A DNA stretch of 64,000 bases from Dehalococcoidia bacterium. Lineage in GTDB: Bacteria > Chloroflexota > Dehalococcoidia > UBA2979. The stretch covers positions 2,592,001 to 2,656,000 of the forward strand of contig OZ244720.1 of assembly GCA_965219085.1 (NCBI GenBank). The letters run 5' to 3'. Shown one piece after another: positions 176 to 57,014 of this stretch (position 1 is its first letter; each line of letters opens with the position of its first letter). Both the position numbers and the translations under genes were made by a program. The notes under the pieces are model-generated. The model was not told where the DNA came from. It saw only the letters and a program-made list of their open reading frames with translations, and searched no databases.

Positions 176-297
176 CTCGTCCGACCTCGTACGCCCGCTC
201 CACGGGCAAAGCGTGATGGGCTGGAGCGCCGGGCGTAATCCCATGAAAGGGACTGCACCGATGACATGTTTCGGCCTTCGCTCGCCCGTCGTACCGC

Positions 298-593
298 CCG
301 TCGCCTCCCGTTATTGGTGCTGCTGACGGCCATCGAGTGTGCGGGGGCGGGCGTGGCGGCGGAATGCCCTATAGGGGAGGGCGCGCGTGGCCCCGCCCCC
401 ATGGAGCGGGCGCAGCCGGGGCCGACGGGTGTCATGGGCGTGTACAGGGAAAAGACGTGAGTTCCGAGAGAGGGAAGTCCCAGAAAACGCAGGCAGGTCA
501 AGGGGAAACGCCTCTACAGGACGCGTCGGGCAGAAATTCGGGAGGAAGCGCGTATTCCACCCGAAGACGCGGAAAGTTCCGTCGGAGGGAAGT
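298..593 (+). promoter_or_regulatory. Conserved non-coding block, copy 1 (oriT/operator-like)
   Basis: Colinear similarity to the reverse complement of 35163-35460; TTCC-N7-GGAA palindromes at 462-476 and 577-591; CTACAGGA motif. Confidence 0.65.
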
Positions 594-922
594 CGGAAAT
601 GACCATCAGGTGCGCGACATCCATGGCCTCGCCCGAGGATGCGGCGGCGATGGTCGGGGCGTCGCCGTCGGGGTCGCCGAACACACCCGGCGAGGACACG
701 CGCCGCGTCGCTCCCGCCCCGGGCGACCGCCGTGGCGTCGTTCCGTCCCGCCCCAGGCATGGGGCGCAGCCCCTTGCGAGCGGACTTCGCGCGTGAAGCC
801 CCCCTGTGAGGGATGGTCGCGCCGTCCCCCGACTCCGACGCTGGAAGCGGCTAGACACCCACCCTGCGGCCCGCAGGGCGGCAAAACGGGCGGGCGTTGC
901 GCCCGCCGGGAGATGGACCAGC

Positions 923-1242: not shown

Positions 1243-4200
1243 GTGGTGGCCACGGTCGACGGCACAGGCGACGCGAACAGGGACGCTCGCGTGGGGAGCG
1301 AGCCCGAAGGCGCGGACGGGACTACCGGCGATCCAATCGCGAGCCGGATCGGCGAGTGGCAGACGCGACTGCTCCAGCTCAACCGTCGGAACAACCTGCT
1401 CTATTTCAAGCCCGGGCGTAGCGCGGTCGGGATCACAGGCCTTGGTCCCGACGAACTCTATGATCGGCTCCGCCGGTCGCGGCGCGGCCTCGAGTTCCCA
1501 TACGCGCCACCGCCGAGACGACGCGGCCGGTTCGCTCAGGAAGACGAGCCCGAAGAGGAGCCCGCCGCCCCTGTCAGTTCCCGAGCTGACCTGGCGACGG
1601 ACTGCGAAGTGGTCGACTTGCAGCGGAGACTCCGCAATCTCCGCCGCCGCGACCGCGAATGGGAAGAGGAGCAGGGCCTTAACGTACTCTTCCTCGCCGT
1701 CGGATTCCTCGATTGGATTGACGCCGACGGCGAGCCGGCGCGCTCGCCGCTGGTGTTGATTCCGTGCGACCTCGAACGTGCATCGCCACGCGACCCGTTC
1801 CGCCTGCGAGCCGAGGACGACGATCCGGTAGTGAACCCCACCCTGAGCCACCAGCTTTCGATCCTGGGCGTTGACCTGCCCGCACTCGGCGGCGACTCCT
1901 CCGAGGACGAATCGCTCGACGCGTATATCGCCGCGGTCGGCGACCTCATAGGAAGTCGAGCGGACTGGGCGGTCGATGGCGGCATCGCGCTCGGCGCATT
2001 CTCGTACTCGAAGCTCGCGATGTACCAGGACCTGGAGCGGATGTTGCGTCACGGCGTCCGGAGTGACCTCACGCAACTGCTCGCCTCCGGTGGCGCCGCC
2101 CGAATCGAGCGGGCAACGGCGAGTGGCACGGCACCTGCGGCGGTGCGTGGAGAAGACCTCGCCGGCGGCCGACTGGACGACCTGCTGGATATCCGCGATC
2201 AGTACGCAGTGCTCCCGACCGACTTCAGCCAGCTGGGCGCGCTCGATCAGGCGCGCGAGGGCGGACACCTGGTCATCCACGGTCCGCCGGGCACGGGCAA
2301 GAGCCAGACGATCGCGAACCTGATCGCGACGCTCCTCGCCGACGGAAAGCGCGTCCTCTTCGTAAGCGAGAAGACGGCCGCCCTCGATGTCGTGAAGCAG
2401 CGGCTGGAGGAGTGCGAGCTCGGGGTGTTCTGCTTCGACCTGCACAGTGACCGGGGTAGGAAGAGCGAGGTCTACGCGCAGTTGCGGGAATCCGTCAACA
2501 ACCCCCGCGCGCGCATCGCCGCCGGTGTGTCCGCAGACGAACTGAAGGAGCAACGGGACCGCCTCAACCGTGTCGTGCGCAGGCTCCACGAGCGCCGGCA
2601 ACCGCTGGGGCTGTCGGTGTACGAGGTGCAGGGCCGCTTCGCAGGACTCCGTCACCTTCCCCGGTTCGAGGCGCTCAAGGCACCATCGGTCGCGGATCTG
2701 GAGCAGGAGTGGATTCGTCAGGCCGAGGCCGATGCTGGCCGGATCGCGCGGCGGCCCGCAGAGTTTCTAAGCCATGACGCCAGCCTGTGGATGCCGCTCC
2801 GAACGCCACAGCGCTCGCTACAGCTCGCGGACCTGATCCGGCACGACATGGCGGACGTACTACAAGCCGTTGAGGAGTTCCGAGCGGCCGCCCAGCCGCA
2901 CGCGGAGTGGCTCGGCGTGCGGGCGATCGGGTCCGCGGAGGATGCGCGAGCCGTGGCGCGACTGTTCGAGCTGCTCGCAGAGGCCCCGGCCGTCCCCGGT
3001 GCATGGCTCGAGCCGGGCACTGTGCCGCGTCTGCGCCGGTTGTCGCGAGAGCAGGCCGAGCAGCAGCGCGAACGCCGCCGCCTTGAAGGGGTGCTGTCGG
3101 ACGCGCTCGGTACTGAACCACCATCTATCGACTACCGCGCCGTACTGAGCCGCATACCTCTCTCGCCTGGAGATCAGGAGGCCCTCGAGGCGACGGCGGG
3201 GCGCGGCTGGCGCAGCGCCCTCGCTACCGATCCGTCGGCGCTGTTGGATGAGGCGAGCGACCTTGCCGCGGCACTCGACCGGCTGGCGGCCGGCGCCGCG
3301 GCGATCGCCGAGCCGCTCGGGAACCCGGAACTGCGCACCCTGAGCCGGATTGATCATGCAGCCGGCCTGGCGCAGCGCGTCCTCGGCTTTGATCCCGTCC
3401 CGCAACACTGGCTCACGGCCGCCGCTATCGATGAGCTGGAGGAGGAAGTCGCACAGGCGCGGTCGCTGCTCGACCAGCTCAGTAGTGAGGAGGATGCGCT
3501 CAGGGCGGACTTCTCCGACGGCCTGGTCGAGCTCGTGGATGAGGAGATGCTTGTCCGCTACCGCACGGATCACCAGAGCTTCTGGCGACGTCTCTTCCGT
3601 GGGGAGTACCGGAGTGACCAGCGCGTGCTGAGAGGCCAACTCGCGGCCCCGCGCAAGCTCTCGCCCGTCGAGTCGCTCACCGCGGTCGAGCGCGCCCTCA
3701 ACGTGCAGCGGCTGCGCGCCCGCTGGAGCGAGATCGAGTCGGAGTTGAGCGAGACTCTGGGGGCGCGCTTCCGTGGACGCGAGACGCAGTGGGAGCGAGT
3801 TGGCGAGGATTCCCGGTTGCTGCGCGGGGTGCTCACCGACTGGCGCGGAGAACCCTCCATCCTCCGCGAATTGACTGCCGCCGGAACGGACGGCGAACGG
3901 CGCCACGAGCTCGAATTGGCAACCGAGCCGCTCAACGATGCCCTCGCTCGGTACCGCAGGGCCGTGGAGGCGATCGGCCATGAGCCACTCGGCGATGCGC
4001 AACTGGACGTGGCAGCCACGGGGGAGGCGGTTCGACGGGCGTTGGAGCCGCTGCACCGCATCCGGGACGCAACGGCGGAACTCTTCCGCAGTCTCGTGAA
4101 GCCGCTCGCCGACTACTACGCGCTGATGGGACTTGTCGAGAGCGGCGTGAGGCTCATGGCGATACGTGACGAGGACGAACGCCTGGCACCGGCACTTGCG

Positions 4201-7313: not shown

Positions 7314-9266
7314 TCACCCCGTGGCGAGGAAGTGCGGGCGACGGCGTTCGGGTGCAGCCGGAGCCGGCAACCGCCAGGCTGCACCGAGGGGACCGTCGAA
7401 GCCAATCGACTCGACGGTGGCGCTCGCCAGCGGCGCCTCGGGCATGTCCGAGGCGGTGCGCAGGAAGGCCTCCTCCGCGTGCTCCGTCTCGAACACGAAC
7501 AACACCATGGGCGGCCGTCCCTCGTGGTCGAGCCGCGCCCGTCCGCTCGCGAAGTAGCGGCGGTACGAAGCCAGCCGCTCGGGCAGCCGCTTCGGCGTCG
7601 TCGCCCGCCGTTCGTACTCGAGCAGGTACCACGTCCACTCATCCTTGTAGCCGAGCTGGAACGAGGCGTCGGGATGGATCACGTAGCCCGTGTCGCGATG
7701 CGGGTAGGCGATCTGCGAGCGGTGCGTGGGCAGCAGGTCCAGCAACTTATGGTCGCGGGAGGAGGCGGCGTCGAGGGCGAGCAGCGAGACGAGCTCCGCC
7801 AGCCCCCGCTGGTGCTCGCCCTGCGAGGCGAGGGCGCGCAGCGCGCTCCCGATGTAGATGCAGCCGTCGCGCTGCGGCGTCCAGCGGTCGAGGACCGGTC
7901 CCACGGCCGCCCGGTCGCGCCGCGCGAGGGCGCTCAGGCCCTCGTCCGTGAGCACCAGCGCGTCCCCGTCGCTGCGCACGAGACCGCGCCTGCGCAGCGG
8001 GCGCAGCACCTGGTTCACGCGCCGCGCGCTCACCCCGCCCATGAGGTTGGCGAGTTGCTCCGTCGTGCAGAGCGGCCAAGCCGCGAGCAGGTCCAGCGCC
8101 TGTTTCCCGGCGGCCGTCAGCTGCAGCGCGAGCGCGTCCCCGAACGCATCGTCGCCGCTGGGCGGTGTCGCCCGCACGCCGCCGGCGGAGAGCCAGGCCC
8201 AGTGTCGTTTCGGCAGCACCCCGTGCACGGGGTGCTCCGCCTCGCGTCCGGCCAGGTCGACCAGCCATGCCAGGCTCGTGTCGGGGGCGATGACCGGTGT
8301 GTTCCCGCGACCGTAGCGAGCCGGTTGCCAGACGCGCGCCCACGCGCCGCCGCCGACCACGGCGCCCAGCGTCGCCACCGCGCTGTGGTGGAAGCCCGAG
8401 GGCTCCCCCAACGCGCGCACGGCGCGGCGCGTGTCCTGGTCGGAGTCGGTCGCGACCAGCGTGACGTGAGGAAGCTCCTGCACGCCCATCCGCTCGATCG
8501 TGCGGATGCGGTAGCGCAGGCTGGCGGCGCTCAGGTGCGGCCCCTGCCGCACGACGCCCAGCGTGCGGCCCCCGGAGAGCGTGACGAGCGCGTCGTACGG
8601 CCCCCGGCGGCAGTGCTCGACGCGCACGGGGTCCTGCTCGGGGTCGGCGTCTGCGATCATCGCGGCCAGCTCGTAGACGAGCGCCACGCCGTCGAGGCGC
8701 TCGGCGAGCAGCCGCAACCACTGGCGGGAGACGGGATAGCGGCGCAGCAGGTCGTCGTCGCCAAGGGCCGCGATGCCCGCCGGGGTCGGGACGTAGCGCC
8801 GCAGCGGACGGCCGCTCAGCATCGCCAGGCGGTGCGGATGCGCCTCGGTCAGGCCCAGCCTGCGCAGCTTCGCCAGTCGCTCGCGCAGCGTGGAGGCGGG
8901 CACGCGCTTGATGCGCGAGAGGTCCTCTACGCTCGCGAAGGGCGTCTCGCAGACGAGCAGGAGGGTCTCCGACAGGGCGCGCGTCAGGCGCGGCGTGCGG
9001 GGGCGCTCACGCGGTGCCGGGCGCGAATCGCCCCTGAGTGCGCGCCGCGCCGCAGCGAGCTTGCCGGGGGTGTCGCCGGCCTTGCTCATCACCGCGCGCG
9101 GCAGCGCGCGACCCGGCTGGCCGCGCTCGAGGAAACGCCACAGCGTGTGGCGCGAGACGCCGAACGCCTCAGCCGTGTGGGCGTGCCCGTGCTTCCACGC
9201 ATGGGCGCGGAGATAGCTCCTGATCTCGCCGGTCAGCTTGCTGTCGGGAGCGCCGCTTGTTGCCAC
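7314..9266 (-). CDS. Replic_Relax (MOBC-like, PD-(D/E)XK) relaxase with extra N-terminal HTH
   Basis: HPDASF...LLEYERRATTPKRLPERLASY motif; GTG at 9266 after GAGGA; full-length similarity to 44536..46146. Confidence 0.8.
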   Translation of the reverse strand: MATSGAPDSKLTGEIRSYLRAHAWKHGHAHTAEAFGVSRHTLWRFLERGQPGRALPRAVMSKAGDTPGKLAAARRALRGDSRPAPRERPRTPRLTRALSETLLLVCETPFASVEDLSRIKRVPASTLRERLAKLRRLGLTEAHPHRLAMLSGRPLRRYVPTPAGIAALGDDDLLRRYPVSRQWLRLLAERLDGVALVYELAAMIADADPEQDPVRVEHCRRGPYDALVTLSGGRTLGVVRQGPHLSAASLRYRIRTIERMGVQELPHVTLVATDSDQDTRRAVRALGEPSGFHHSAVATLGAVVGGGAWARVWQPARYGRGNTPVIAPDTSLAWLVDLAGREAEHPVHGVLPKRHWAWLSAGGVRATPPSGDDAFGDALALQLTAAGKQALDLLAAWPLCTTEQLANLMGGVSARRVNQVLRPLRRRGLVRSDGDALVLTDEGLSALARRDRAAVGPVLDRWTPQRDGCIYIGSALRALASQGEHQRGLAELVSLLALDAASSRDHKLLDLLPTHRSQIAYPHRDTGYVIHPDASFQLGYKDEWTWYLLEYERRATTPKRLPERLASYRRYFASGRARLDHEGRPPMVLFVFETEHAEEAFLRTASDMPEAPLASATVESIGFDGPLGAAWRLPAPAAPERRRPHFLATG

Positions 9267-9399
9267 TCGCTGTCCTCTTCGATGGCCGCGGAAGCGTTGC
9301 AACACGTCGGGGAAGGCGCGCACGTGTTGATCCGTGGCGGGCGCGTCGGTCGCGGCGCGCAGTCCTCGTCCAGCTTGCGATCAGGACGTACGTTCGTCA

Positions 9400-9531
9400 A
9401 CGCACCACGACGGCGAGTTCGTGCCGCTGATCCCGGGCGCGCCCAAGTTCGTGAACCGGCCCTTCCACGAGCTGTTCCCGCACGGCGTTCCGCCCCTCAC
9501 GCCGCTGGTCGCCGCAAGCGACGGGCGGTAG
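9400..9531 (+). pseudogene. Orphan 3' fragment of a giant surface-protein gene (C-terminal repeat only)
   Basis: HDGEFVPLIPGAPKFVNRPFHELFPHGVPPLTPLVA versus HDGEFVSYILGAPAFVNREFRELFADGLPAVTPLVA at the end of 11191..24711. Confidence 0.75.
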
Positions 9532-9919
9532 GCCCCCTCGGAGCGCGACACCGCTGCCACTGCGCGCGGCCGAGTTCGCTCCGCCTTCCGCGCAGAACGC
9601 TCTTGCCCGGCAAGCGGCGTGACGGCTGCACTCCGCAGCGCGCCACCGCGTCGCTGGTTCTCAGGCAGTCGCTCATTGCCTGAGAAGAGGCCACACGGCC
9701 CTCAATCCATGACATTCACGCTATGTTCACAGAGTAGCATCGCAAGTTCACGTCCCGTGCACTGACACCAAGCCAACGAGCAGGAAGAATTGCCCCGTTG
9801 AACCTGGGAGAGCGCAACACGCGCGCGAGGGGGCACTGGTGCGTCGGACGGTCGCGAAGTCGAACGGGAACGCGCGGCAGGCAAGCGCAACGGCGCTGCC
9901 TGCGCGCATCGCGCTACTA

Positions 9920-9943
9920 GAACAAACGTACCCCCCCCCCCCC
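9920..9943 (+). promoter_or_regulatory. SOS-box-like site GAAC-AAAC-GTAC followed by a C13 homopolymer
   Basis: Read directly; lies about 250 bp upstream of the surface-protein operon. Confidence 0.45.
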
Positions 9944-10192
9944 ATTTTTCCGTCGGCGGCCCGTAGCCGGGCCTCGCTCGTTCGCTTCAACCGCCTCCGC
10001 CGCAGCGCCGCACGCCCGGAGCACACGCCCGTCCGCCGTCTCTCATCCGAACCGTCGCCGCCCCCGGCGCTCCAGTAGGGGCGCGCCCGTGCGTACCACG
10101 CCTCGTCTGCCGGCGTAGGCGCACGCCGCCGCCCCCGTTGGACGGAGGCTTGACGACGGGGCCATGCGCAACACGCACCAGGAGGAGCAACG

Positions 10193-11194
10193 GTGGCCCA
10201 CACAGCCAGACCCAGGCTCGCCATCCTCTTCGTCGCCCTGGCCGCGCTGCTCGCGCTGTCCCTCACCGGCGCGCCGGCCCAGGTCCAGGAGGGCTCCGCC
10301 CCCGAACGGCCCACGGGCCTGGCCCTCTCGGACGTCAGGCACGACTCGGTGACCCTGACCTGGGACGACCCCGGTGACCCCAGCATCACCCACCACCAGA
10401 TCTTCCGGCGGGACCTCGCCGTCCACGCCGTCGGCGAGTTCGTCGCCATCGAGGAAGACACCGGCTCGGCGGCCACCAGCTACACCGACGCAACGGTGCA
10501 GCCGGAGCAGGGCTACGTCTACCGGGTCAAGGCGGTGAACCGGCACGGGGCCAGCCAGTGGTCGCGGTACGCGGGCGCCGACACCCCGGCGGCGTCCAGC
10601 CCGGAGCTTGGGCCCGAACCGACGCCGCAAGGCTCCCCCACGCCCACCCCTACGGCAAAGCCGGTGGTCCTGCCGCTCAAGGACCTGCCCACGACATTCG
10701 CCAAGCGCTCAACGACAGGCGGACGGGGAGACGCAAGCTCGGCGCAGGGAGCGGTCTACACCTACGAGGACGGCGACCGGACCATCAGAGTCGTCTTGCA
10801 GACCGATCTCGTCGTCCGGCAGACCGGCGCCGACACGTCCACCAACGTTGTGGTGCGCCGCGTGGCCGGGGGCAGCATCGTCCGCAGTCACTTCGCATAC
10901 GGCGCCGCTGCCCAGCCGGTGTTCCGCTCTGCGTCGGGAGGTCAGCTGATGACGCTGCCCGGCGGCGTGCTGCTCGCCCTGGACCCGGAGTGGGACCGGG
11001 ACAGGGTCCAGCGCTTCTTCTCGGAGAACAGCATCTCCAAGGCACGAATATCCGAGCGGAACTTCATACCGAACGGCTTCTTCGTGGAGACCGAGCCGGG
11101 TTTTCCGTCACTTGATCTGGCCAACGCGTTGGCGGCGCAGGAGGGCGTCGTGTTTGCCAGCCCCAACTGGTGGCAGGAAGCCTCGACGCAATGA
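10193..11194 (+). CDS. Secreted protein: signal peptide, fibronectin type III domain, Pro/Thr linker, subtilase prodomain-like C-terminal domain
   Basis: GGAGG RBS; Fn3 pattern (VTLTWDDP...YVYRVKAVN); ends SLDLANALAAQEGVVFASPNW; ATGA overlap with next gene. Confidence 0.8.
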   Translation: MAHTARPRLAILFVALAALLALSLTGAPAQVQEGSAPERPTGLALSDVRHDSVTLTWDDPGDPSITHHQIFRRDLAVHAVGEFVAIEEDTGSAATSYTDATVQPEQGYVYRVKAVNRHGASQWSRYAGADTPAASSPELGPEPTPQGSPTPTPTAKPVVLPLKDLPTTFAKRSTTGGRGDASSAQGAVYTYEDGDRTIRVVLQTDLVVRQTGADTSTNVVVRRVAGGSIVRSHFAYGAAAQPVFRSASGGQLMTLPGGVLLALDPEWDRDRVQRFFSENSISKARISERNFIPNGFFVETEPGFPSLDLANALAAQEGVVFASPNWWQEASTQ

Positions 11195-14100
11195 GACGCC
11201 CACGCCCACCAGCGCATGGCGGCCGCCGCGCATTTCTGCTTGCGCGTCTTGGCCGCAACATTCATGCGTTGTTGCTGCGAAACGCGTGGATGCTGCTTGC
11301 GGCGCTCCTGGTGTCCCCGTTGCTCGTCCTGCACGCCACCGGCGTCGCAGGACAGACCATAGAGACTCGCGACGGAGACACTTTCGCCACCGCGACCGAT
11401 ATATCGCTTGGGGCATCAGTGGAAGGAGAAATCGACTCAGCCGACGATCCCGACTACTTCAAGCTGGACCTGTCGGGCCAATCCGGAACCACCGACGTGG
11501 TCATATCCACGACCGGCAGCACCGACACCACTGGAAAACTGTATGGCAGCGACGAAATGCTCATCATGGAAGACGACAACAGCGGAACCGATACTAACTT
11601 TCACATGGAGGAGACTCTCTCGCCGGGCGTTTACTACGTGCTGGTTGAGGGCTCTGGAAGTGCAACCGGATCCTACACACTGTACGCCAAACCGGTCCTT
11701 TCCCCGGGATCCTCGGTGGAGATGAGCATCGACTCCATCGGCGAGGTTGACCACCATATTTTGGACTTGACGGGCGAAACCGGCACCACCGACGTATCGC
11801 TCTTTGCGGTCAGCGACAACCTGCGGCTTGTTCGATCTAATGGATCTAAGCCTGATCGACTTACGAATACAGACGCTTTGGGTCAACGAAGGGTGCTTCA
11901 TCATTGGTACTATACCGACGTTGACGGCGGCACGGCTTACGCTTTTGATGTTAAGAGCGACGATGTTGAGGAGGAGAGTTGGCGCACTGGAGACTATAGG
12001 GTGCACTTCGCGACCGTGCCTAGTGGCGCCGGCTCATTTTTTGATCCCACGACTCTGAGCCTCGATGTCCCAACGTCCGGCAAGCTGCGCTCCCTCGATC
12101 ACTACTTCGGGCTGACGCTCGACGAGCCCAAAGACCTGGTCATCATGACCTTTTTGAGTGCTCGGGCAGTCATCCTTGACTCCGATGGTAACGAGATATC
12201 AGTAAACGACACATACGATCATTCCTCAGAGTATCTATACAGCACGATAAGCGACGACTTCGCCGCCGGCAATTACTTCGTCAAGATAAGCGCTCCTGAT
12301 GCAAACAGTTTCAACCCCGTTTACTACGCGCTCTATGCCTACGAGGACACCGGCTACGGGGAATGGTCCGACGCCTGCGACGTTGCAACAGGGGCACTGA
12401 CTTTCCAGGTCAGCGACCCCCTGTATGCCTGCCAGTGGCACCTAAACAGCGCCGACAGCGCGGGCATGGACATCGACGTCGAATCGGTCTGGGCGAGCGT
12501 CACGGGCGCGGGCGTGAACGTCGCCGTGGTAGACGAAACGATCGATTACAGCCATGAGGACCTCGCCGCCAACGTCGACAGCACGCTCAGTTATGATTAC
12601 GGGCCGCTCAGCAGCGCCTACCGTTCCATCGACCACCACGGCACGTACGTCGCGGGCGTGATCGCAGCCAGGGACAACGCCATCGGCGTACGCGGGGTGG
12701 CCCCCAGGGCCACCATCTACGGGTATAACCTCCTTGGCGATGGCGAAACTCTCTTTTCGCATGATAGGGCGGTAGACGCCATGTCCCGCAACCAGGACGT
12801 AACCGGGGTCTCCAACAACAGTTGGGGTTTAAGCGGAGATAGCGCCGGTTTCGTCATGGCGCCCACTCAGTGGTGGACGGTGCTGGACGGCGGCGTCACG
12901 CAAGGCTACGGGGGCAAGGGGGTCTTCTATGTCTTCGCCGCCGGCAACGGACACCCGTATGGAGCAAATTCCAACCTTGATGAGATGATCAACCATTACG
13001 GCGTCACCGCCGTGTGCGCGGTGGGTGCAGAAGACACCAGGGCTTCATACTCGGAGCAGGGCGTCAACCTGTGGGTCTGCGCCCCGTCGCAGGGAGGCTA
13101 TGAAGGCGATGCCGCCGCCGACCGGGCCATCGTCACCACGGAGAATTCCGACCGCTACACCAATGCCTTCGTTGGGACCTCCGCGGCGACCCCGATAGTC
13201 TCAGGCGTGGCCGCGCTGCTGCGCCAGGTCAACCCGGCGTTGACGTGGCGGGACCTGAAGCTGATCCTGGCCGCCTCGGCGCGCAAGAACGACCCCGGCA
13301 ACGCCGGCTGGACGGATGGCACCCGCAAGTACGGCTCGTCCAACGCGTCGGACACATATCACTTCAACCGGGAATACGGGTTCGGCATGGTTGACGCCGG
13401 CGCCGCAGTGGCCCTGGCGCGGAGCTGGAGCTTGCTCCCGCCGTTTCTGGATGATTCAGAGCAATCGAGCCCGCTCAACGCCGCGATCCCCGATAACAAC
13501 ACCAGTGGTATCACTAGCTCCCTCACCCTGGATACGGATATCGAGTTCACCGAGTTCGTCGAGGTGGAAGTCACAATCGACCACAGCTACTGGCGTGATT
13601 TGCAGATAGAGCTGGAGTCTCCGGATGGGGCCGTTTCCACATTGGCCGTAGCAGCACAGGTGAGTCCATCTGCCTCGCCGGGCACGTTCCGATTCGGCTC
13701 GGCAAAGCACCTTGGCGAGGACCCGAACGGTGCGTGGAAGCTTCGCGTCTCCGACCAGGTAGCCGTGGACAGCGGCACGTTGGAGAGCTGGAGCATCAAG
13801 GTCTATGGCCACGGCTCCACGATACGCGCGGCCAGCACCGGGCCGACGACGGCCACGGCCACGGTGTGGCAGCACAACCCTGACTCGGCGAGCCGGACGG
13901 TCCACCTGCGCCACAGTGACAACGATGGGGCTACCTGGTCCACGCCCGCGGTCCAGACGACCACGGGAGCGTCGGTGGAGTTCAGCGTGACAGGTCTTGC
14001 GCCCAATGCCGAGTACAAGCTGCAGGCGTCCTTGGACGGCGCCTTCGCGGACAAGGTCCAGGCCGACTTCGTCAACCGGCCGGCGCGCCAAGACATCGGC

Positions 14101-17100
14101 ACCGCGTCCCCGAGCCGCAATCTCAAGGGCCTCTGGTCGGACGGCACGACCATGTGGGTGGCGGATCGGACCAACTTCCGTATCTACGCGTACACGCTGG
14201 CCACGGGGGCGCGGGACGCCGACAAGGACATCAGCAACCTGGCGGGGGCCGGGAACACACACCCCGAAGGCATCTGGTCGAACGGCACGACCATGTGGGT
14301 GTCGGACTTTTTCGACGAGAAACTCTACGCGTACGCGCTGGATGGCGGGGCACGGGACGCCGACAAGGAGTTCAACTTGGCGGCTGCGAACACCAGCCAC
14401 TGGGGCCTCTGGTCGGATGGCGCGACCATCTGGGTGGCGGACTCGGGAGACGAGAAACTCTACGCGTACGCGCTGGATGGCGGGGCACGGGAAGCCGACA
14501 AGGACATCAACACCCTGGCGGCCGGGAACGCCTACCCCTGGGGCCTCTGGTCGGACAGCACGACCATGTGGGTGTCGGACTTGTCCAACGGCCGGGTGTA
14601 CGCGTACACGCTGGCCACAGGCGCGGACGAGGGCCGGAAATTCAACACCCTGGCGGCCGGGAACGGCAACCCCTTCGGCATCTGGTCGGATGGCAAGACC
14701 ATGTGGGTGGCGGACTCGCAGGGCAAGCTCTACGCCTACTACGTGCCCGCCAACACAAATCTGAGCGCTCTGAGCGTGAATGGCACGCCCGTGGCCGACT
14801 TCCGCCCGGGCTTCACCACGTACCAGTTGGCCGTGGCCAACTTGGTGACTCAGGCGACGGTGTCGGGCGACGCCGCCGACGGCGATGCCACGGTGGCCTA
14901 CGGCGGCGCCGCCAACGCCACTGGCCAGGTGGACCTGGTCGAGGGCCGCAACGTCGTGACGGTGACCGTGACCGCCGAGGACGCCGCCATCACGAAGGAC
15001 TACACCGTCAGCATCAACCGGGCATCGGCCGCCCCCTACGGCTGGAGAGCCGACAAGGACCTCGACACCCTGGCGGCGGCCGGGAACACCTTCCCCTTCG
15101 ACATCTGGTCGGACAGCACGACCGCGTGGGTAGTGGACTGGCAGGACCAGAAGCTCTACGCCTACACGCTGGCCACGGGGGCGCGGAACGCGGTCAAGGA
15201 ATTCGACCTGAAGTCCGGAAACACCTCTCCGACCGGCATCTGGTCGGACGGCGCGACCATCTGGGTGGGGGACTCGCAAGACGACATGTTCTACGCATAC
15301 ATGCTCGACACCGGGGCGCGGGTCTCAAATAAGGACCTTGACCCGTCCCTGGTCGCGGTCGGTGATCTTTGGTCGGACGGCACGACCATGTGGATGGCGG
15401 ACTTTGGCAACCGGAAGCTCTACGCCTACACGGTAGTCACTGGCAGACGTAACCCAGATAAAGACATCGACCTTACGACCACGAACGTTTACGGCCATGG
15501 TCTTTGGTCGGACGGCACGACCATGTGGGTGGCGGACCTGCAAGGGAAGCTCTACGCCTACGCGCTGGACGGCGGGGCACGGAAAGCCGGCCAGGACTTC
15601 GACACCCTGGCGGCGGCCGGGAACATCTCGTCGAGGGGCATCTGGTCGGACGGCGAGACCATGTGGGTGGCAGACTCGCACGACGCCAAGATCTACGCCT
15701 ACAACATGCCGCCTCCCAACAGCCCGCCGGAGTTCAGCGACGGGGCGAGCACGACGCGGAGCGTGGCGGAGAACACGGCCCCGGGCGAGAACGTGGGGTC
15801 TGCGGTGGCCGCCACCGACGTCGACGGTGACACGCTGACCTACACCTTGGAGGGGACGGATGCGGCGTCCTTCGACATCGTAACGACCAGCGGGCAGATT
15901 CTGACCAGCGCGGCCCTGAACTACGAGCAGAAGACGTCATATTCGGTGACGGTGAGCGTCGCCGACGGCGAGGGCGGCACGGACACCATCGGGGTGACCA
16001 TCAACGTCACCGACGTGAACGAGAAGCCGGCGACGCCCGGCCCGCCCACGGTGACGGCGACCGCGAACATCACCACGAGCCTAGACGTGAGTTGGACGGC
16101 GCCGGGGCTCAACGGCGGGCCGGCGCTGACGGGCTACGAGGTGCGCTACCGGATCAGCGGCAGCTGGATCGACTGGACGCACAGCGGCACGGGCACGAGC
16201 GCGACGATCACGGGGCTCACGGCGAGCACCACCTACGACGTGCAGGTGCGGGCGCTCAACGGCGAGACGCCCAGCGCCTGGTCTTCTACGGGCACAGGCA
16301 GCACCGGGACCCCGGCGAACAACGCGCCGGAGTTCAGCGACGGGGCGAGCACGACGCGGAGTGTGGCGGAGAACACCGCTTCCGGCGCCAACGTGGGGTC
16401 TGCGGTGACGGCCACGGACGCCGACGGCGACACCCTGACCTACACGCTGGACGGCACCGACGCGGCGTCCTTCGACATCACCTCGACCAGCGGGCAGATT
16501 CTGACCAGCGCGGCCCTGAACTACGAGCAGAAGACGTCATATTCGGTGACGGTGAGCGTCGCCGACGGCGAGGGCGGCACGGACACCATCGGGGTGACCA
16601 TCAGCGTCACCGACGTGAACGAGAAGCCGACGACGCCCGGCGCGCCGACGGTGACGGCGACCTCGAACACGACCGACAGCCTGGACGTGAGCTGGACGGC
16701 GCCGGGGCTCAACGGCGGGCCGGCGCTGACGGGCTACGAGGTGCGCTACCGGATCAGCGGCAGCTGGATCGACTGGACGCACAGCGGCACGGGCACGAGC
16801 GCGACGATCACGGGGCTCACGGCGAGCACCACCTACGACGTGCAGGTGCGGGCGCTCAACGGCGAGACGCCCAGCGACTGGTCTTCCACGGGCGCCGGCA
16901 GCACCGGGACCCCGGCGAACAACGCGCCGGAGTTCAGCGACGGGACGAGCACGGCGCGGAGCGTGGCGGAGAACACCGCTTCCGGCGCCAACGTGGGGTC
17001 TGCGGTGACGGCCACGGACGCCGACGGCGACACCCTGACCTACACCCTGGGGGGCACCGACGCGGCCTCCTTCTCGATAGTGGGGGCCAGCGGGCAGATA

Positions 17101-20100
17101 CAGACCAGCGCGGCCCTGGACCACGAGACGAAGTCCAGCTACTCGGTGACGGTGAGCGTCGCCGACGGCGAGGGCGGCACGGACACCATCGGGGTGACCA
17201 TCAGCATCACGGACGTGGACGAACCGCCGTCGGCGCCGGCGGCGCCGGCGATCAGCGGCGTGTCGGGCTTCAACGACCGGCTGCTGGTGAGCTGGACGGC
17301 GCCGTCGGACACGGACCGGCCGGCGGTCACGGACTACGACGTGCAGTACCGCGAGAGCGGCGTCGGCGCCTGGAGCGACTGGAGTCACACGGGCACGGCC
17401 ACGACGACGACGATCACGGGGCTCGATGCGGGTGCGACGTACCAGGTGCAGGTGCGGGCCGAGAACGATGAGGGCGAGGGCGCGTGGTCGGCCTCGGGCA
17501 CGCAGGCGACCAACGCGCCGCCCGCGTTCGCCGGGTCGACGACAACGCGGGCCGTGGAGGAGAACACGGCGGCGGGGATGGGCGTGGGCGCGGTCGTGAC
17601 GGCCACCGACGCGGACAACGACACCCTGACCTACTCGCTGGAGGGGACCGACGCGAGCAGCTTCGTGATCGTCGCGAACAGCGGGGGGATCCAGACCAAG
17701 TCGAACGTGACCTACGACCACGAGGCCAAGTCGACCTACTCGGTGACGGTCCGGGCCAAGGACGGGCAGGGCGGCGACGCCACGATCAGCGTGACGATCA
17801 CGATCACGGACGTCGACGAGCCGCCCTCGGCGCCGGCGGCGCCGGGGGTCGCGTTCACCTCGGGCACGACCGACGGCCTGGACGTGAGCTGGGACGCGCC
17901 GGTCGACACGGGCAAGCCGCCTCTCACGAGCTTCGAGGTGCAGTACCGCAAGACCAGCGCCAGCACCTGGGCCACTTGGCTTTTCGTCGGCCCGGGCGCG
18001 ACGGCGAAGATCAAGGGCCTGGATGCCGGTACGGAGTACGAGGTCCAGGTGCGGGCCAACAACGACGAAGGCATGAGCGCCTGGTCGGCCTCGGGCATGG
18101 CGGAGACGGACGCCGCCCCGGCCTTCGCGTCGGGCGACTGCCAGTACAACAGCTGCACGGTCACGTTCGGCGAGAGCCTCGACAGCACGTCGGGCAACAC
18201 GCCGCCGGTGGGCGCCTTCACGCTCACGGCCGGTGGCGCCAGCCTGACGATCGGCGGCGTCAGCGTCAGCGGCACGACCGTGACGCTGTCGTCCGTGTCC
18301 CCCTTCATCAGGCAGGGCCAAGCGATCACGCTGGCCTACGCCGACCCCAGCACCAACAACGACACCGCGGCTCTGCAGGACGCCCTGGGCAACGATGTCG
18401 CCTCGTTCAGCGAGACGCTGACCAACAGCTCCCCCTACGACTTCCCCTCGGAGCCGACGCAGCTGAGTGCGCTCCAGAACGGCCGCAACCAGATCGACGT
18501 CGAGTGGACGGCGCCGACCGACAACGGCGGCGATGCGAACTTCAGCTACCGGTTGGAGGTGTCGACCGACGCTGGCGCGAATTGGACCACGCAGGTCGCC
18601 AGTCAGACCGCCACCACGTACAACCACACGGGCCTGATGGCGGGCGACACGCGGCACTACCGGGTCTTCACGGTCAACATCATCGGCGACAGCCGGGCCT
18701 CCAGCACGGCCAGCGCCACCACCAACCGTCCGCCGACGGGCGCGCTGGTGATCGACGGCACGGCCCAGGTGGCCGAGAAGCTGACGGCGAACACGTCCAA
18801 CATCTCCGACGCCGACGGCCTGCCCGCGGACGATCAATTCAACTTCCAGTGGCTCCGGGTCGCCGGCGGCAACGAGTTCAGCATCCCCGGGGCCACGCAG
18901 TCCAGCTACCGGCCGGTCCCGGCCGACCTGGGCCAGACGCTGCGGGTGCGGCTCGACTACGACGACAACGCCGAGTTCGCCGAGACGCTGACCAGCGCGG
19001 CGACGGCGGCGGTGCAAGAGTCCCCCTACGGGGAGATCGTCTGGGCCGCCACGCTCACGGCGGGGCAGGCGGGCACGACCCTCGGCTTCAACAGCACCGG
19101 CCCGGTCGGCTCCTTGGAGGCGAAAACGTTCGCGCCCGGCGCCATCACGGTGAGCCAGCTCACCTACGACGGCGGCGCGGGGACGTTCGCCGTCACGGGC
19201 TTGGGTTCGGGCGACTACATCCTCTATCTCGGCAGCGGGCCGCAAGGCGCGCACGCGCTGATCGTGGATCCGGCGTCGGACGCCGACGACGTCTTCGACT
19301 TCTCCAGCACCGGGCTGAGCTGGAGCGCCGGTCAAGCGGTGGAAGTGCGGCTGACGCTGAACCGCGAGCCCGTGGGCGTGCCCTTGATCAGCGGCGCGGC
19401 CGTCGAGGGGACAACCCTGACGGCCGGGATCGAGAACGTCACGGACGCCGACGGCCTGCCCGCCTCCGATCAGTTCCGCTACCAGTGGATCGTGACCGAC
19501 GGGGGGACCGAGTCCGAGATCACGGGGGCGACCGGCACGACCTATACGCCGGAGCTGACCGACCTCGGCAAGACCTACACGGTGCGGGTCGACTACACCG
19601 ACAACGCCAACTTCCCCGAGTCGCTGACCAGCGCGCCCACGGATCCGATCGAGGTACGCGGGCAGGTCATCTGGTCGGCGGAGCTGACCGTCGAGGGCTG
19701 GGGCGAGCCAAGCCTCAGATCTTTCGGTTTCGATGCATCATCCGCGACCGTCCGTGGGGCGCTGCAGCCGGACACGATCATCCACAACGGCGCCTACGAG
19801 GTCGAATCGCTGCTCTACTCCGGCCATCAGAGCTTCGGGACCGGCCCCGTGCTGAACAAGACGATGCTGTTCTCGACGACCACCGAGCTGCCGGCGGGCG
19901 ACTATGCCCTCTGGGTGGTGGATGACGACGGCGACGCCGATCTGGGCGATCTTCCGTTCATCTTCCCGGCAGCCGATGCGGATGGATTCTTGCAGAATCC
20001 CGTCGTGCTGACCTGGGCAGACGATGACACGGTGGACGTGCGGCTCACGGTCAACCGCCTGCCCGGCGGCGCGCTCACGATCAGCGGCCAGGCCAAGGTG

Positions 20101-23100
20101 GGCACCACGGTGACGGCGGACGTCTCGGGCGTCTCCGACGCCGACGGCCTGCCCGCCAGCGGCGAGTTCCGGTACCAGTGGTTCACCGTTGACAGCGGCT
20201 CCAACACGCCGATCGGCGGTGAGACGGATCAGAACTACACGCCGGTGAGCGCCGATCTCGGGAAGTCGATCAGGGTGCGGCTGCGCTACACCGACGACGC
20301 CTTCTTCACCAACACCGTGTTCAGCGCCGCGGCGGTGGTGGCGTCGGGCACGGGCAACCACCCGCCGCAGTTTTCCACGACCTCCACGTCGCGGACGTTG
20401 ACCGAGAACACGGGGGCGGGCGTGAACGTCGGCGCGGCCGTCAGCGCCAGCGACGCCGACAGCGGCGACAGCCTGACCTACACGCTGGAGGGGACGGACG
20501 CCGGCTCGTTCGACATCGTCCCGGCGAGCGGGCAGATCCAGACCAAGACGGGCGTGACCTACGACTTCGAGACGCAGACGAGCTACTCCGTGACGGTCAA
20601 GGCCGACGACGGCAACGGTGGCACCGACACCGTCGCGGTGACCATCAACGTCGTGAACGTCAACGAGCCGCCGGTGATCAGCGGGGTGTCCAGTGTGAGC
20701 TACGCCGAGGGAGGCACGGCAGAGGTCGCCAGCTACAGCGCGACGGACGAGGAGGGGGCCACGATCACGTGGTCGCTCTCGGGCACGGACGCCGGCGACT
20801 TCGAGATCGGCGCCAACAGCGGTGTGCTGACCTTCAAGACCTCGCCGGACTACGACAACCCCGCGGATGGGAACGGCGACAACGACTACCTCATCAGGGT
20901 GCAGGCCTCGGACGGGACGAACCTGGTCCCGTTCGACGTGACCGTGACCGTCACCGGGGTGGACGAACTCCCGACCATCCCCAGCGGTCCGGCCAGCGTG
21001 GACTACGCCGAGAACGGCACGGCGGCGGTCGCGACCTACAGCGCGACGGACCCGGAGGGCGACACGATCACCTGGGCGCTGATAGGCCCCGACGCCGGCG
21101 CCTTCGCGATCGACGCCGGCGGCGTGCTGACGTTCGCCGCCACGCCCGACTACGAGAACCCCAGCGACCAGGGCGGCCAGTCCGGCGACAACGTGTACAG
21201 CCTGCTCGTCGTGGCCTCGGACGCCGGGAACAACACCGCCTTGCTGGCCGTGACCGTGACCGTCACGCCCGTGGACGAGACTCCCGTGGTCGGCGGCCAG
21301 GCGAACGTGAGCTACGCAGAGAACGGCACGGCCGATGTCGAGACCTACAGCGCGGCGGACCCGGAGGGCGACCCGATCACCTGGTCGCTGGCGGGCGCCG
21401 ACGCCGGCGACCTCGCGATCGACGCCACCGGCGTGCTGACGTTCACCGCCCCGCCCGACTACGAGGACCCCCGCGACCAGGGCGGCGACAACGAGTACGT
21501 CGTGACGGTGCAGGCCTTCGACGGGACGAACATGGGCACGCGCGAGGTGACCGTCACGGTCATCGACGTGAACGAGCCGCCGGTCATCAGCGGCGATGCG
21601 ACCGTCGGCTTCGCCGAGCACGCCACGGGCAGCGTCGCCACCTACACCGCCGACGATCCCGATGACGCCACCATCATCTGGACGCTGGCGGGGACGGACA
21701 GCGGGTTCTTCTCCCTCAGCGGCGGCGTGCTGACCTTCGACACGCCGCCCAACTTCGAGCTCCCACAGGACGCGAACTTCAGCAACGACTACGAGATCAC
21801 GATCGGGGCCTCCGACGGGGCCAACCCGGTGAGCCAGGCGGTGACCGTCACGGTCGTCGACCTCGAGGAGCCGGGGACGATCAGCCTCTCCTCGCCGCAG
21901 CCGCAGGTCGGGACCGGGCTGACGTCCACGCTCGATGAGCGGGACGCGATTGTCGTCGCCGCCGTCCGGAAGTGGCATCGCTCGCCCGACGGGAGCACCG
22001 CTTGGACCCTCATCCTGGGGGCCACGGCGAGCAGCTACACGCCCGTGCAAGGCGATCTGAACTATTACCTGCGGGTGACGGTGTCGTACACCGACACGCA
22101 CGGCCCCAAGACGCCGGAGGCCGTCTCGGAGAACGCGGTGCGGCCGGTGCCGGCCGGCGCCAACCATCGTCCCGAGTTCGACGAGGGCTTCAGCACGACC
22201 CGCTCCGTCGCCGAGAACTCGGCCGGCGACACGCCCATCGGCGACCCGGTGGAAGCTACCGACGCCGACCCCGCCGACGTCGTCGCACTGACCTACTCGC
22301 TCTCGGGCTCGGACCTCTTCACGGTCGACCCCGCCACGGGGCAGATCGCGGTCGCGGAGGGCGCGGTGCTCAACCACGAGGCGCAGGCTTCGCACACGGT
22401 CACGCTGACCGTCGCGGATCCCGGCGGCCTGGAAGACACCATCACCGTCACCATCACCATCACCGACGTGAACGAAGCGCCCGAGCCGGTGGGCGACGAC
22501 GCCACGACCAACGAGGACACGCCTGTCATGATCGAGGTGCTGGACAACGACAGCGACCCCGAGGATGACGACCTCACTGTCTCCTCGTTCAACTCCCCGG
22601 CCAACGGCTCGGTGGCGAGAGCCCGCGACGACCCCAACAAGCTCACCTACACCCCCGACCCCGACTTCCACGGCGTGGACACGTTCACCTACCAGGCGAC
22701 CGACGCTAGGGGCCTCTTCGGGGAGGCCACGGTCGTCGTGATGGTGAACCCGGTGAACGACGCGCCGGAGTTCCCCGCCGGCCCGGTCCAGCGCTCCGTC
22801 GTCGAGACCGCGCAGGCAGGGGACAAGGTGGGCGACCCGGTGGAGGCCATCGACCCGGATGTCGGCGACACGCTGACGTACGCACTCTCGGGCATCGACG
22901 TGAGCAGCTTCGGGATCGACGGGGACACGGGCCAGATCACCGTGGCCGCCGACGTCGATCTCGAACCGACGACCGAGGATAACCTCGCCCTCAGCGTCAC
23001 CGTGACTGCCACAGAGGTGCGCACCGATGGGCAGTCTCCCGCCAGCGACAGCATCCAGGTCACCATCACCGTCACGACCGGTTCCACCGGTCCCGTCATC

Positions 23101-24711: not shown

Positions 24712-26516
24712 TCGCTCTTCGCTGCCTGCGCCAGCTCGTAACGGCAACCGCCTATCGGCCTGGTGGAGGCAACGCCGCCTCCCATGAGTAGCGCAGCGTT
24801 TGGTGTGGATTGGAAAACCGAGACCTCCGTCTCGAACCAGACGATCGTCGGGAAGTCGACGAGGTCGAGGCCCGTCTGCACGAGCCGCGGGTGGCAGACG
24901 AGCACGTCGGCACCCTCCTCGACGCGCTGCGCCACCCACGCCTCGCGGCGCTCAGGCGGGACGGCGTCGGACTTCATGACGGCCACCCGGAAGCCGTGGC
25001 GGCCGAGGAAGTCCTCCATCCGCCCCGTGATGTCGCGCGTCCCGGTGTGGGTCGCGTAGACGAGCACCCGGCGGCCCTGGACCCGCTCGGCGGCGACGAG
25101 GTCGACCAGCGCCTGCTCCTTCGGGTAGAGCTTCTCCGCAGGGAGCGGCGGCACCTGTACGAGCAGCTCTTCGCCCTCCGGGTCGAAGACCGCCTCGCCG
25201 CGCGTGCAGCCGTCGGGGTAGGCCAGCAGCGTCTGCAGGTAGGTCGCGAGCAGCCGCCGCGAGCCCTTCGAGAGCGCGTCGGCGAGCGCCGCCCGCAGCG
25301 TCCCGAAGAGCGTGTCGTAGCCGCTGTGCTGCGAGAGCCCGGCGGCGTCCGCCTCCGCGTCCATCGAGGAGAGCAGCACGCGCTCCTCGTAGGCCGGGAG
25401 TCCCGAGGCCACGTCGGCGAGCCGCAGGAAGACGCTGTTGCCGATGAGGTGGAAGAGGGCGGCCGGGGCGAGCCCCGGGCGCTCCCGGATCACCTTCCGG
25501 TACTTGCGCCTGCGGCTCGTGCGCCCGTCCTCGAGTGAGTCGCCGTCGTCGCGGCCGATCGTGTGCTCGACGAAGCCGTAGCGCTCGATCCAGCGGCCCT
25601 CCTCGGAGCGCCCGAACTCCCCCCGAATCTCCGGGCTGAACCGGTAGAGCAGGTGGAAGAGCGTCGAGGAATAGCCGCCCATGAGCGTGCCGCTCAGGCT
25701 GAGCGACTTGCCGCAGACGTCGGCGAGGATGCCGGCGGCGATGCCCTGGGCGGAGCCGCGGCCCTTGTACTCGTGCACCTCGTCGCCGACGAGCAGGTCG
25801 AAGAAGCCCTTCAGGCGGTGCTTCACGTAGTCGGCGAGCGGGTAGCGCTTCGGACCGGAGCGGTCGGCCTGCCAGAGGGCGGAGCCGCACTCCGGGCACC
25901 AGCGCTTGCGGCGGCCGAGGTCACGGCCGAGCAGGGGCACGCCGTCCTTGTCGACGATCTGGGCGTGGCAGTCCGGGCAGCACGGCACGCGGAACGGCTC
26001 GCCCGTCTCCTCGTGGCGGACGAGGCGGCCGCGCACCGTCGCCCAGCGCTCCACCGTGGCGGGCTGCCAGCGGTAGGAGAGCTTGGCGCGCTCGCGCGAC
26101 ATGATCGCGAAGAGCGGGCCGAGGCCGGTCGTGGCGCGCAGCCGCTCGAGGTCGGTGATCGAGGCGACGATGACGGCGCGGGCGCCGGGCACCGTCTCCT
26201 CGACCTCGCGCTTCCACTTGCGGGTGAGGTGCGGCGGGCAGAGCACGAGCACCCGCTCGAAGCCGGCCATGTGCGCCGCCGAGGCGGCGATGAAGGTCTT
26301 GCCCGTGCCCATCTCGCCGACCACGGTCGTGCCGCGCTGCGCCTCGAGCGAGAGCGCCGCGCCGCGGATCGCGTCGGCCTGCGCCCCCAGGGGAGCGCGC
26401 AGCAGGGGCGGGAGTTCGCGGCCCGGCTCGGAGGGCCGGTAGCGGGGTGGGTAGGACTCCACCACCCGCCGGGCGATGGCGTCGCGGTATGCGTCGATGA
26501 ATCCTGCGAGGTCCAT
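24696..26516 (-). pseudogene. SF2 (SNF2/DEAD-like) helicase, apparently 3'-truncated
   Basis: GEMGTGKT, DEVHEYK, SGT, LVQTGLDL motifs present; no arginine-rich motif VI; reads into unrelated sequence after WFETE at about 24826. Confidence 0.75.
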
Positions 26517-26552
26517 GGTTCCGTTCCTTTCTTGCTTTGGTCGTGACGTGGC

Positions 26553-26584
26553 GAGGCCCCGCGATCGCATGACCGCGGGGCCTC
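26553..26584. other. Perfect 11-bp inverted repeat between MTase and helicase
   Basis: GAGGCCCCGCG-N10-CGCGGGGCCTC. Confidence 0.6.
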
Positions 26585-26609
26585 GTGGATGCGGCCCGGT
26601 GTCGAGCCG

Positions 26610-28294: not shown

Positions 28295-28354
28295 GGCCTG
28301 TCTCCTTCCGTAGGTGCCTGGTGGTTCGTGCGCGGGCACGGGCCCGCGTCTGCG

Positions 28355-37497: not shown

Positions 37498-37506
37498 GGG
37501 GACGTC

Positions 37507-39554: not shown

Positions 39555-39573
39555 CACCCAGGAGCAGATCCCG

Positions 39574-56940: not shown

Positions 56941-57014
<74 letters not shown>

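Follow-up and report, generated by a model that had tools for sequence, protein, structure and literature searches.

What is the function of a stretch of non-coding DNA that occurs both in an integrative and conjugative element (ICE) and in a smaller mobile element lodged within it? The question is raised by a 64,000-nt stretch of the genome of a Dehalococcoidia bacterium (G000:C1:2592001-2656000; genome of 3.3 Mb, 69.8% GC, single contig), which is referred to at its full length as the window. A block of roughly 290 nt lies once near the left end of the window, inside a mobilizable element that carries a serine recombinase, and once, in inverted orientation, between two divergent operons of the ICE that houses this element. 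A preliminary description, made from the sequence alone, had pointed out the pair and proposed a transfer origin (oriT) or an operator. On balance, we read the block as a divergent control region that is common to ICEs and serine-recombinase mobilizable elements and that is operated by p289, the helix-turn-helix (HTH) protein encoded beside the ICE copy (34278-35147, minus strand).

Two copies of a non-coding block

The preliminary description had placed the left copy at 298-593 and held that it aligns colinearly with a copy on the opposite strand. Within the genome, blastn returned window 324-593 (+) against 35433-35164 (-) with 71.3% identity over 275 nt (E 1.1e-25), and a MAFFT alignment of window 200-760 (+) with 35560-35000 (-) displays a colinear conserved stretch from about 325 to 595, which contains all five of the sequence blocks that had been quoted; the claimed alignment is thus significant. 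The pair is the longest inverted repeat of the window. Matches to a profile of the block family delimit the copies at 312-599 on the plus strand (genome 2592312-2592599, E 2e-58) and at 35164-35441 on the minus strand (genome 2627441-2627164, E 4e-52). The latter occupies the 315-bp gap between the starts of the genes at 34278-35147 (-) and 35462-36082 (+), which head a DNA-processing operon and a type IV secretion system (T4SS) operon, in agreement with the position between divergent operons that had been reported. No reading frame stays open throughout the 15 aligned copies of the family, stops falling in varying frames; insertions and deletions are not multiples of three, and column variability by codon position (0.78, 0.70 and 0.73) has no three-base periodicity. 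A protein-coding reading was rejected on these grounds, and the block is non-coding, as had been supposed.

On its forward strand, the block opens with the box ATCGAGTGTG (332-341 in the left copy), which is among the best-conserved positions of a 96-sequence profile and of an 83-sequence alignment (A4), followed by a variable spacer of fixed length, an AATGCC-like box and stem-loop 1. About 30 variable bases further on lies the best-conserved core, GTG-N-TGTCATGG-N3-TGTACAGGGAA (GGGTGTCATGGGCGTGTACAGGGAAA at 427-452), with the top information content of the profile and five of the seven invariant A4 columns (G114, T118, G125, T126 and A127 in first-row numbering). The core is succeeded by the palindromic site O1, by the small stem-loop 2, which ends in CCCCTACAGGAC (missing in some clades), by a CACTTTG box and a GGTTCC box, and at the 3' end by a second palindromic site, O2, and the ribosome-binding site of p289. 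Stem-loop 2 and the CTACAGGACG box after it span 501-523 in the left copy; its helix (helix 4) is paired in 75% of cells, and the box is kept in most, not all, clades. Homology to other copies fades just past O2. The GC content of the block dips to 58-63% (genome 70%), and its forward strand is purine-rich.

The element around the right-hand copy, named ICE-1, is an ICE, since the operon that diverges from the block (35462-46146, +) encodes, by Pfam, a secreted protein, TrbL/VirB6, a pilin, VirB4, a coupling protein and a Replic_Relax relaxase (44536-46146), a family (PF13814) that the literature equates with the MobC, or MOB_C, relaxases (PMC5357655). The left copy belongs to the "passenger", which is a 26.6-kb serine-recombinase mobilizable element sitting within ICE-1. 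This insertion runs from window -1811 to 24825 (1-24825 inside the window), as determined from its junctions and gene content: its flanks are contiguous in paralogues at genome 719988 (a second ICE) and 1863782, and the junctions lie at window -1812 (L005:16189) on the left and 24826 on the right, with a TC dinucleotide common to both. The interrupted sequence is the C-terminal part of the ResIII/SNF2-type helicase gene of ICE-1, and the target of the inserted element thus seems to be a gene of the ICE, not one of the host. On one side of the left block lies a small gene (2-244, -), which together with a large serine recombinase beyond the left window end forms an operon divergent from the block; on the other side lie a DUF4011 helicase, a Replic_Relax relaxase (7314-9323, -) that is 33% identical to that of the ICE, and a 4513-aa surface protein. 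The inserted element thus has a recombinase and a relaxase, lacks a T4SS and a coupling protein, and has the block in common with ICE-1, in the manner of helper-dependent mobilizable islands. Gene content and junctions both agree with the earlier view that the block is shared by a T4SS-bearing ICE and a T4SS-less element lodged in it.

Linkage of the block to p289

Within the genome, six copies of the block are detected by blastn and eight by the profile; four of the eight have a relaxase gene no more than 11 kb away, and the remaining four are found in decayed loci. Blastn also detects the block in 8 of the 18 other genomes of the genus, often in multiple copies. The block is linked to p289, a member of an unnamed family without a Pfam domain that numbers 164 proteins in the protein collection and 372 loci in the genome collection, nearly all of them in metagenome-assembled genomes of Dehalococcoidia. 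The genome itself has four p289-family genes or remnants by tblastn (at 2627 kb, 730 kb, 2556 kb and 790.7 kb), each with a copy of the block just upstream. For locus statistics, 80 of the 372 loci were fetched; a profile built initially from 15 block copies matched upstream of p289 and on its strand at 75 of these loci in the first pass and at all 80 after one iteration. The gene across the block from p289 belongs to a T4SS in 47 of the 80 loci, is a recombinase or small gene in 19, and is neither in 14, a group that includes T4SS-deleted derivatives in which the block abuts the coupling protein or the relaxase. Downstream, a primase gene follows within 4 kb in 50 of the 80, and recombinase-type loci of other genera have the same order of block, p289, small gene, primase and Rad52 as the ICE.

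ICE-1 and ICE-2, the second ICE of the genome, match at 90-100% along their T4SS sides as far as about 35500. From the 5' end of the secreted-protein gene onwards, across the block and p289, only 45-75% of positions agree; the block thus moves together with p289. Linkage to p289, shared gene order and this break in identity together indicate that the block forms the roughly 290-nt head of a p289-primase-Rad52 module found in many Dehalococcoidia ICEs and recombinase elements. A tblastn search of the genome detected no p289 homologue within the inserted element, and its block is for this reason regarded as a derivative that lost p289. The idea that the passenger had merely copied a site of its host ICE proved too narrow, the block being the constant head of the module at 80 of 80 p289 loci.

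The block was also expected to track with relaxase and T4SS loci, and it does so. In a class sample of 151 genomes, Replic_Relax is present in 18 of the 19 genomes with p289 and in 16 of the 132 without. The two genes are typically 10-11 kb apart, or 1-5 kb in compact elements, and at least 25 cases were counted in which both match within 12 kb on one contig. Within the genus, a relaxase is found in eight of nine genomes with a block that blastn detects and in six of ten without, a comparison in which diverged blocks escape blastn.

Several variants of the family deserve separate mention. A third element of the genome (L057, 2555.4-2564.5 kb) lacks T4SS structural genes and looks like a deletion derivative of an ICE: a coupling protein is represented by its C-terminal part, the recombinase is 87% identical to that of the ICE, and there are also a Replic_Relax gene, a p289 homologue (38% identity) and a diverged block. 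In two congeners, block copies stand in tandem 0.4-1.3 kb apart (L017:1501-1749 and 2824-3019; L008:1501-1683 and 1871-2112), the L008 pair comprising one copy of each sequence type, which suggests recombination between elements at or near the block. Partial copies that start at query position 128-130 or thereabouts were considered as a recurrent breakpoint or possible nic site and were found instead to be a subfamily in which the right arm of the stem-loop is replaced.

Putative operators, stem-loop and competing readings

Both copies had been credited with two TTCC-N7-GGAA palindromes about 115 bp apart, and these were recovered by a pattern scan. The left O1 (460-478) is an AGTTCC-N7-GGAAGT palindrome; the pattern AGTTCC-N4-GAGGGAAGT occurs there and at 575-593 (O2) on the plus strand, 115 nt apart, and at 35280-35298 (O1, with two mismatches) and 35164-35182 (O2) on the minus strand, 116 nt apart. 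In the ICE copy, O2 is followed immediately by the GGGAGG ribosome-binding site, and its end lies 16 nt from the start codon of p289. When up to three mismatches are allowed, the window holds seven matches, six of them in the four block sites (two sites match on both strands) and one outside at 13553-13571, compared with a mean of 1.04 in 100 shuffles, none of which reached seven. Throughout the family, O1 begins 17-19 nt past the invariant GTACA core, and a near-identical second site follows 105-132 nt past O1 or, in some clades, about 173-187 nt past it, possibly with a third site. The best 16-mer match to O1 within the same element averages 12.8 identical positions; 44 of 83 elements reach 13 or more of the 16 and 28 reach 14 or more, whereas the mean is 10.4 against elements that have a different O1 and 10.25 with shuffled O1, no control mean exceeding 11.6. 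The sites keep a constant asymmetric base and fall by lineage into about eight classes, namely four of GTTCC type (GTTCCG-N6-GGGAA, GTTCCG-N4-CGGAA, GTTCCC-N4-GGGAA and GTTCCA-N5-GGGAA), GTTGCA-N3-TGCAA, TGCAAGTTGCA, TGTACA-N-TGTACA and a CCCC/GGGG type.

The candidate binder of these sites is p289, for which an AlphaFold2 model (pLDDT 81) predicts an XRE-like HTH at the N-terminus, a long helix and a helical C-terminal domain. It has no match in Pfam, NCBIfam or PHROGs; the PDB yielded noise only by sequence profile and Foldseek E values of 1 or more, a VIA wide search gave a top Z of 8.2 with generic helical hairpins throughout, ESM Atlas scores did not exceed 0.78, and tblastn found no match among plasmids. 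The sole leads from fold and features are XRE/Cro-type regulators, as weak matches. The p289 gene starts 16 nt beyond O2 and has the T4SS operon on the other side of the block, which is the placement of a regulator beside a divergent operon seen with Rco and ImmR, and the intergenic region holds at least two repeated palindromic sites, as do switches of that type. In 40 of 40 listed loci, the start of the predicted helix 3 follows the half-site family: N-(Y/H/N)-K-T accompanies GTTCC sites (23 loci), (A/N)-Y-R-T accompanies GTTGCA (6 loci), D-R-R-T accompanies TGTACA (7 loci) and D-P-R-T accompanies TGCAAG (4 loci), the changes falling at positions expected to read bases. As gene and site are inherited together, this match is descriptive and amounts to only about three independent changes. 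O1 and O2 are accordingly spoken of here as putative operators of p289.

The perfect 12-bp hairpin that had been reported for the ICE copy was located at 35358-35385 on the minus strand (arms 35374-35385 and 35358-35369, loop TGTG, -25.8 kcal/mol). The left copy was said to keep only one arm intact; its left arm (372-383) is indeed kept, but the imperfect right arm still folds with it into nine pairs (372-402, -17.2 kcal/mol). Across the family, stem-loop 1 folds at -17 kcal/mol or lower in 66 of 74 distinct versions, with 12-24 pairs, GC-rich stems of very different sequence and energies down to -42 kcal/mol. Its two helices are paired in 88% and 78% of the cells of the 83-sequence alignment, and in 11 of the 12 pairs both partners vary. 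Taken over the 27 pairs tested, from stem-loop 1, O1, stem-loop 2 and O2 together, covariation scores 0.275, whereas shuffling gives 0.144, with none of 500 shuffles attaining the observed value, and slid partners give no more than 0.147. Selection acts on the structure of stem-loop 1.

On the strength of the observed homology, copy number, non-coding nature, architecture, p289 linkage and covariation, we infer a binder, the places of promoters, a direction of control and an effect in trans, as follows. Block, p289, small gene, DnaG-type primase, Rad52 and SSB (single-stranded DNA-binding protein) would constitute a portable module of ICEs and serine-recombinase mobilizable elements, in which p289 would bind two palindromic operators, apparently three in some clades. 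Bound p289 would set the transcription of its own operon and of the oppositely pointing one, comprising T4SS genes in ICEs and the small gene with the serine recombinase in mobilizable elements. As operator and recognition helix differ by lineage, each lineage would possess a separate code. The sites of the left copy and of ICE-1 are of the same class, GTTCC-N6-GGGAA, while those of ICE-2 are of another. Although p289 is lost from the inserted element, its O1 and O2 are still of the ICE-1 class, which leads to the prediction that the p289 of ICE-1 controls the recombinase operon of the passenger in trans and thereby couples recombinase expression to the state of the ICE. Among four recombinase-type copies of the genome, in which stem-loop 1 is weakened or lost, the segment of about 105 nt from the core to CTACAGGAC, which holds O1, is 92-97% identical by hand count, and the whole block 82-83% identical by blastn. 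This pattern fits operators and a core that are still in use, with the stem-loop disused, in elements without p289; slow decay would fit it too.

A number of observations weigh against such a control region. Binding by p289 is deduced from adjacency and from the covariation of helix and site, with its roughly three independent changes. A sigma-70 consensus scan detected no promoter inside either copy, with a consensus that may not be that of the host; its one promoter-like site lies outside the block, at 1189-1218. The spacing of O1 and O2 is inconstant across the family (105, 115-119, 129-132 and 173-187 nt) and fits helical phasing only in part. The left copy is possibly a decaying relic, given its imperfect stem-loop and missing p289, and in its nearest relatives, at 360 kb and 794 kb, the right arm of the stem-loop is missing entirely. 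Finally, operators alone leave the covarying stem-loop of 12-24 bp and the lineage-constant boxes unexplained; stem-loop 1 and these boxes may serve a second function, such as oriT or priming.

That the block is or contains an oriT is possible, though we regard it as doubtful. A MOB_C relaxase would then nick near the stem-loop or the core, p289 would act as a relaxosome accessory protein at O1 and O2, and the related oriT of the inserted element would use the mating pore of the ICE. Regions of this kind often serve as divergent promoter regions too, so that an oriT is compatible with operators. The stem-loop is very stable and maintained by compensatory changes, and lineages with different operators share the same boxes, which a conserved enzyme would lead one to expect. 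Linkage to relaxase and T4SS loci, with p289 and relaxase co-occurring in the genome sample as given above, extends to mobilizable derivatives: all T4SS-less derivatives keep the block, among them T4SS-deleted ones that have it beside the coupling protein or relaxase (L092, L114, L118, L134 and the 2556-kb element). It is also kept in minimal recombinase modules without a relaxase. All of these arguments from retention are confounded with the keeping of the p289 operon's own promoter. Moreover, no nic motif could be named, the block has no similarity to any of 72,556 PLSDB plasmid records, the 30 nt 3' of the stem-loop, where nic is usually located, are poorly conserved, and the relaxase gene of the ICEs lies 9-11 kb off rather than adjacent. 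The stem-loop is lost in p289-less recombinase copies while the segment from the core to CTACAGGAC stays at about 92-97% identity, which is unexpected if hitch-hiking elements need an oriT repeat. The block does have a transfer operon on one side and, on the other, an operon of the kind found in leading regions, with two SSB genes, a methyltransferase, RadC and primase; SSB and methyltransferase genes are reportedly enriched in leading regions beside oriT (PMC11541004). By an inferred geometry, however, leading genes on the template strand, as in that study, should point towards oriT, which would place it beyond the helicase end and not at the block. A precedent is offered by mobilizable islands with an oriT that matches the one of SXT-type ICEs at 63% over 282 bp (PMC5704250). 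For the alternatives named in the preliminary description, operators gained support from palindromes that recur in each element and change with the p289 helix, while the oriT found neither a nic site nor a plasmid relative; no feature was found that separates an oriT from a promoter and operator hub.

Two further functions would place the block in DNA replication or at the RNA level. As a replication or priming site, which we judge unlikely, it would offer O1 and O2 as iterons to p289 as initiator, or its stem-loops as single-strand initiation (ssi) signals to the element's own DnaG-type primase, for replication of the excised element or for synthesis of the complementary strand after transfer. 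The tie to the p289-primase-Rad52-SSB module rather than to T4SS genes, with primase near p289 in most loci, speaks for this, as do the lineage-specific repeated sites, the dip in GC content and the purine-rich forward strand. Stem-loop 1 is also slightly more stable on the forward strand (47 versions, compared with 24 on the reverse strand), a bias that is weak and drawn from inter-related sequences. The sites number only two or three, however, and are palindromic, not direct iterons; fold searches found no helicase loader or recognisable initiator fold in p289, and the two window copies show no evident AT-rich stretch for unwinding. An action as RNA, be it as a long structured leader of the p289 mRNA or as a small regulatory RNA, is very improbable. 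It would account for the covariation in stem-loop 1 and, to some extent, stem-loop 2, for forward-strand G-U pairs (47 at the closing pair of helix 4), for the slightly better folding of the forward strand and for the position of O2 directly before the ribosome-binding site. The RNAalifold consensus fold is nevertheless weak (-22.8 kcal/mol for 15 sequences, -8.4 kcal/mol for 73); only stem-loop 1 and short palindromes survive in it, long-range helices are not kept, and the asymmetric base and sequence recurrence of the O sites suit recognition by a protein better than pairing. Rfam at gathering score returned five tRNAs only for the whole window, and at E up to 10 the two copies gave one chance-level match (Methylosinus-1, 10.9 bits against a cut-off of 145). 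A large structured RNA was discarded on account of the absent long-range helices and Rfam family. There is no forward-strand terminator; the single hairpin resembling one lies on the other strand from the ICE copy and is stem-loop 2.

A combined scheme, which is speculative and which we consider rather unlikely in its entirety, would make the block a dual-purpose docking head by which an entire guild of Dehalococcoidia mobile elements is defined. Stem-loop 1 and the core would be a transfer or priming origin for MOB_C relaxases and primase, while the operator pair and the p289 helix would be an identity code that pairs hitch-hikers with ICEs; elements that keep the code without p289, such as the one inserted in ICE-1, would be obligate listeners of a resident ICE of the same code. 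If this held, listeners would be able to live inside an ICE by targeting its helicase gene.

Neighbourhood, significance and known systems

The remainder of the p289-headed operon (24696-34188, -) encodes, by Pfam, a DnaG-type primase, Rad52, two SSB proteins, RadC, a DUF6094 methyltransferase and the ResIII helicase that is cut by the insertion. A 300-nt direct repeat of 96% identity (29418-29717 and 29967-30266) spans the tandem SSB genes, a sign of recent duplication; two SSB genes are present in the second ICE as well. Past the T4SS operon come an HTH gene and then a large serine recombinase (48369-50042, +), whose 3' end overlaps a tRNA gene (49952-50022, -), which suggests that the ICE border and attachment site lie in or beside this tRNA gene. 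Outside the ICE, three tRNA genes are found within 360 nt at 56944-57299 (-).

Within the inserted element, the serine recombinase frame (L005:15975-17768, -) extends 213 nt beyond the left junction into helicase sequence; its last 71 codons therefore come from the integration site. Between the small gene and the block (window ~250-290), recombinase-type copies, including L007, L017 and L025, have an extra conserved stretch that forms a perfect 18-bp palindrome in one congener (L007) and an imperfect one in the window. The 4513-aa reading frame (11170-24711, +) has many internal repeats with periods of about 135-141 and 600 nt, and parts of it recur at 65-90% identity in dozens of other places in the genome; the block copies at 360 kb, 794 kb and 821 kb likewise have giant surface-protein genes as neighbours. 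The interval 9323-10193, upstream of the element's relaxase gene, was tried as its oriT and rejected, most of it (9400-10597) being repeated beside giant-protein genes without a relaxase.

Conjugative elements of Chloroflexota are almost undescribed: a full-text search found nothing on conjugative relaxases of Dehalococcoidia, and the titles and abstracts examined in a search for Chloroflexota ICEs and type IV secretion were not about Chloroflexota ICEs. The block, as a recognisable cis element whose profile finds 80 of 80 related loci, provides a handle on these elements and marks a place to seek oriT and the switch that starts transfer. It comes with an unnamed and widespread HTH family (372 loci) and a readable code of operator and helix, and with these three in hand the pairing of helper and hitch-hiker becomes testable from sequence alone. 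The matter bears on how genes move within a class to which organohalide respirers belong, as do many uncultured bacteria of groundwater and sediment. The block family is new to the literature searched, and the kind of system to which it belongs is already known.

ImmR, in the PimmR/Pxis region of ICEBs1, is an XRE-type repressor at a divergent junction with several operators, where it decides between maintenance of the integrated state and transfer genes. ImmR is short, of the classical repressor type, and shares an operon with its protease and the integrase, whereas p289 has 289 aa, a long helix and a conserved C-terminal domain. The relaxases encoded here belong to the same family (Replic_Relax, PF13814) as those of the MOB_C plasmids pAD1 and CloDF13. 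The oriT of pAD1 combines an inverted repeat with short repeats that confer specificity and in this resembles the conserved stem-loop with its lineage-specific sites; unlike in the oriT regions of MOB_C plasmids, to which the comparison with PLSDB plasmids showed no sequence similarity, the relaxase gene of the ICEs is distant from the block. The Frpo/ssi promoters of plasmid leading regions, as portrayed in PMC11541004, are likewise structured non-coding elements beside SSB, methyltransferase and primase genes. Frpo hairpins are long there and mimic -35 and -10 boxes; stem-loop 1, in contrast, has 12-24 bp and no such boxes, and the operon points away from the block.

One of the closest parallels to a p289-operated control region is the Pc/Pr switch of the Bacillus plasmid pLS20, where transcription of the repressor gene runs away from the conjugation operon and its product, Rco, occupies two operators and loops the DNA (PMC4207663). 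In both systems, an HTH regulator gene diverges from a conjugation operon, with two intergenic sites about a hundred base pairs apart, and p289 is predicted to control both directions as Rco does. Apart from a generic HTH, p289 resembles Rco neither in sequence nor in any detectable fold; it heads a long primase-Rad52-SSB operon, and its region contains a covarying stem-loop and is reused before recombinase operons, while binding, looping and promoters are putative here. With the mobilizable islands of Vibrio, for which PMC5704250 relates that the SetCD regulators of SXT/R391 ICEs switch on the integrase and excision genes of the island, the inserted element has in common that it is a T4SS-less integrative element with a non-coding stretch of about 280 bp that is 60-70% identical to one in its helper ICE. 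The common stretch of the Vibrio islands is a proven oriT, and the SetCD activators act at separate promoters. The element described here, in contrast, has its own relaxase and a serine recombinase and is integrated inside the ICE itself, and its block may do one or both of these jobs.

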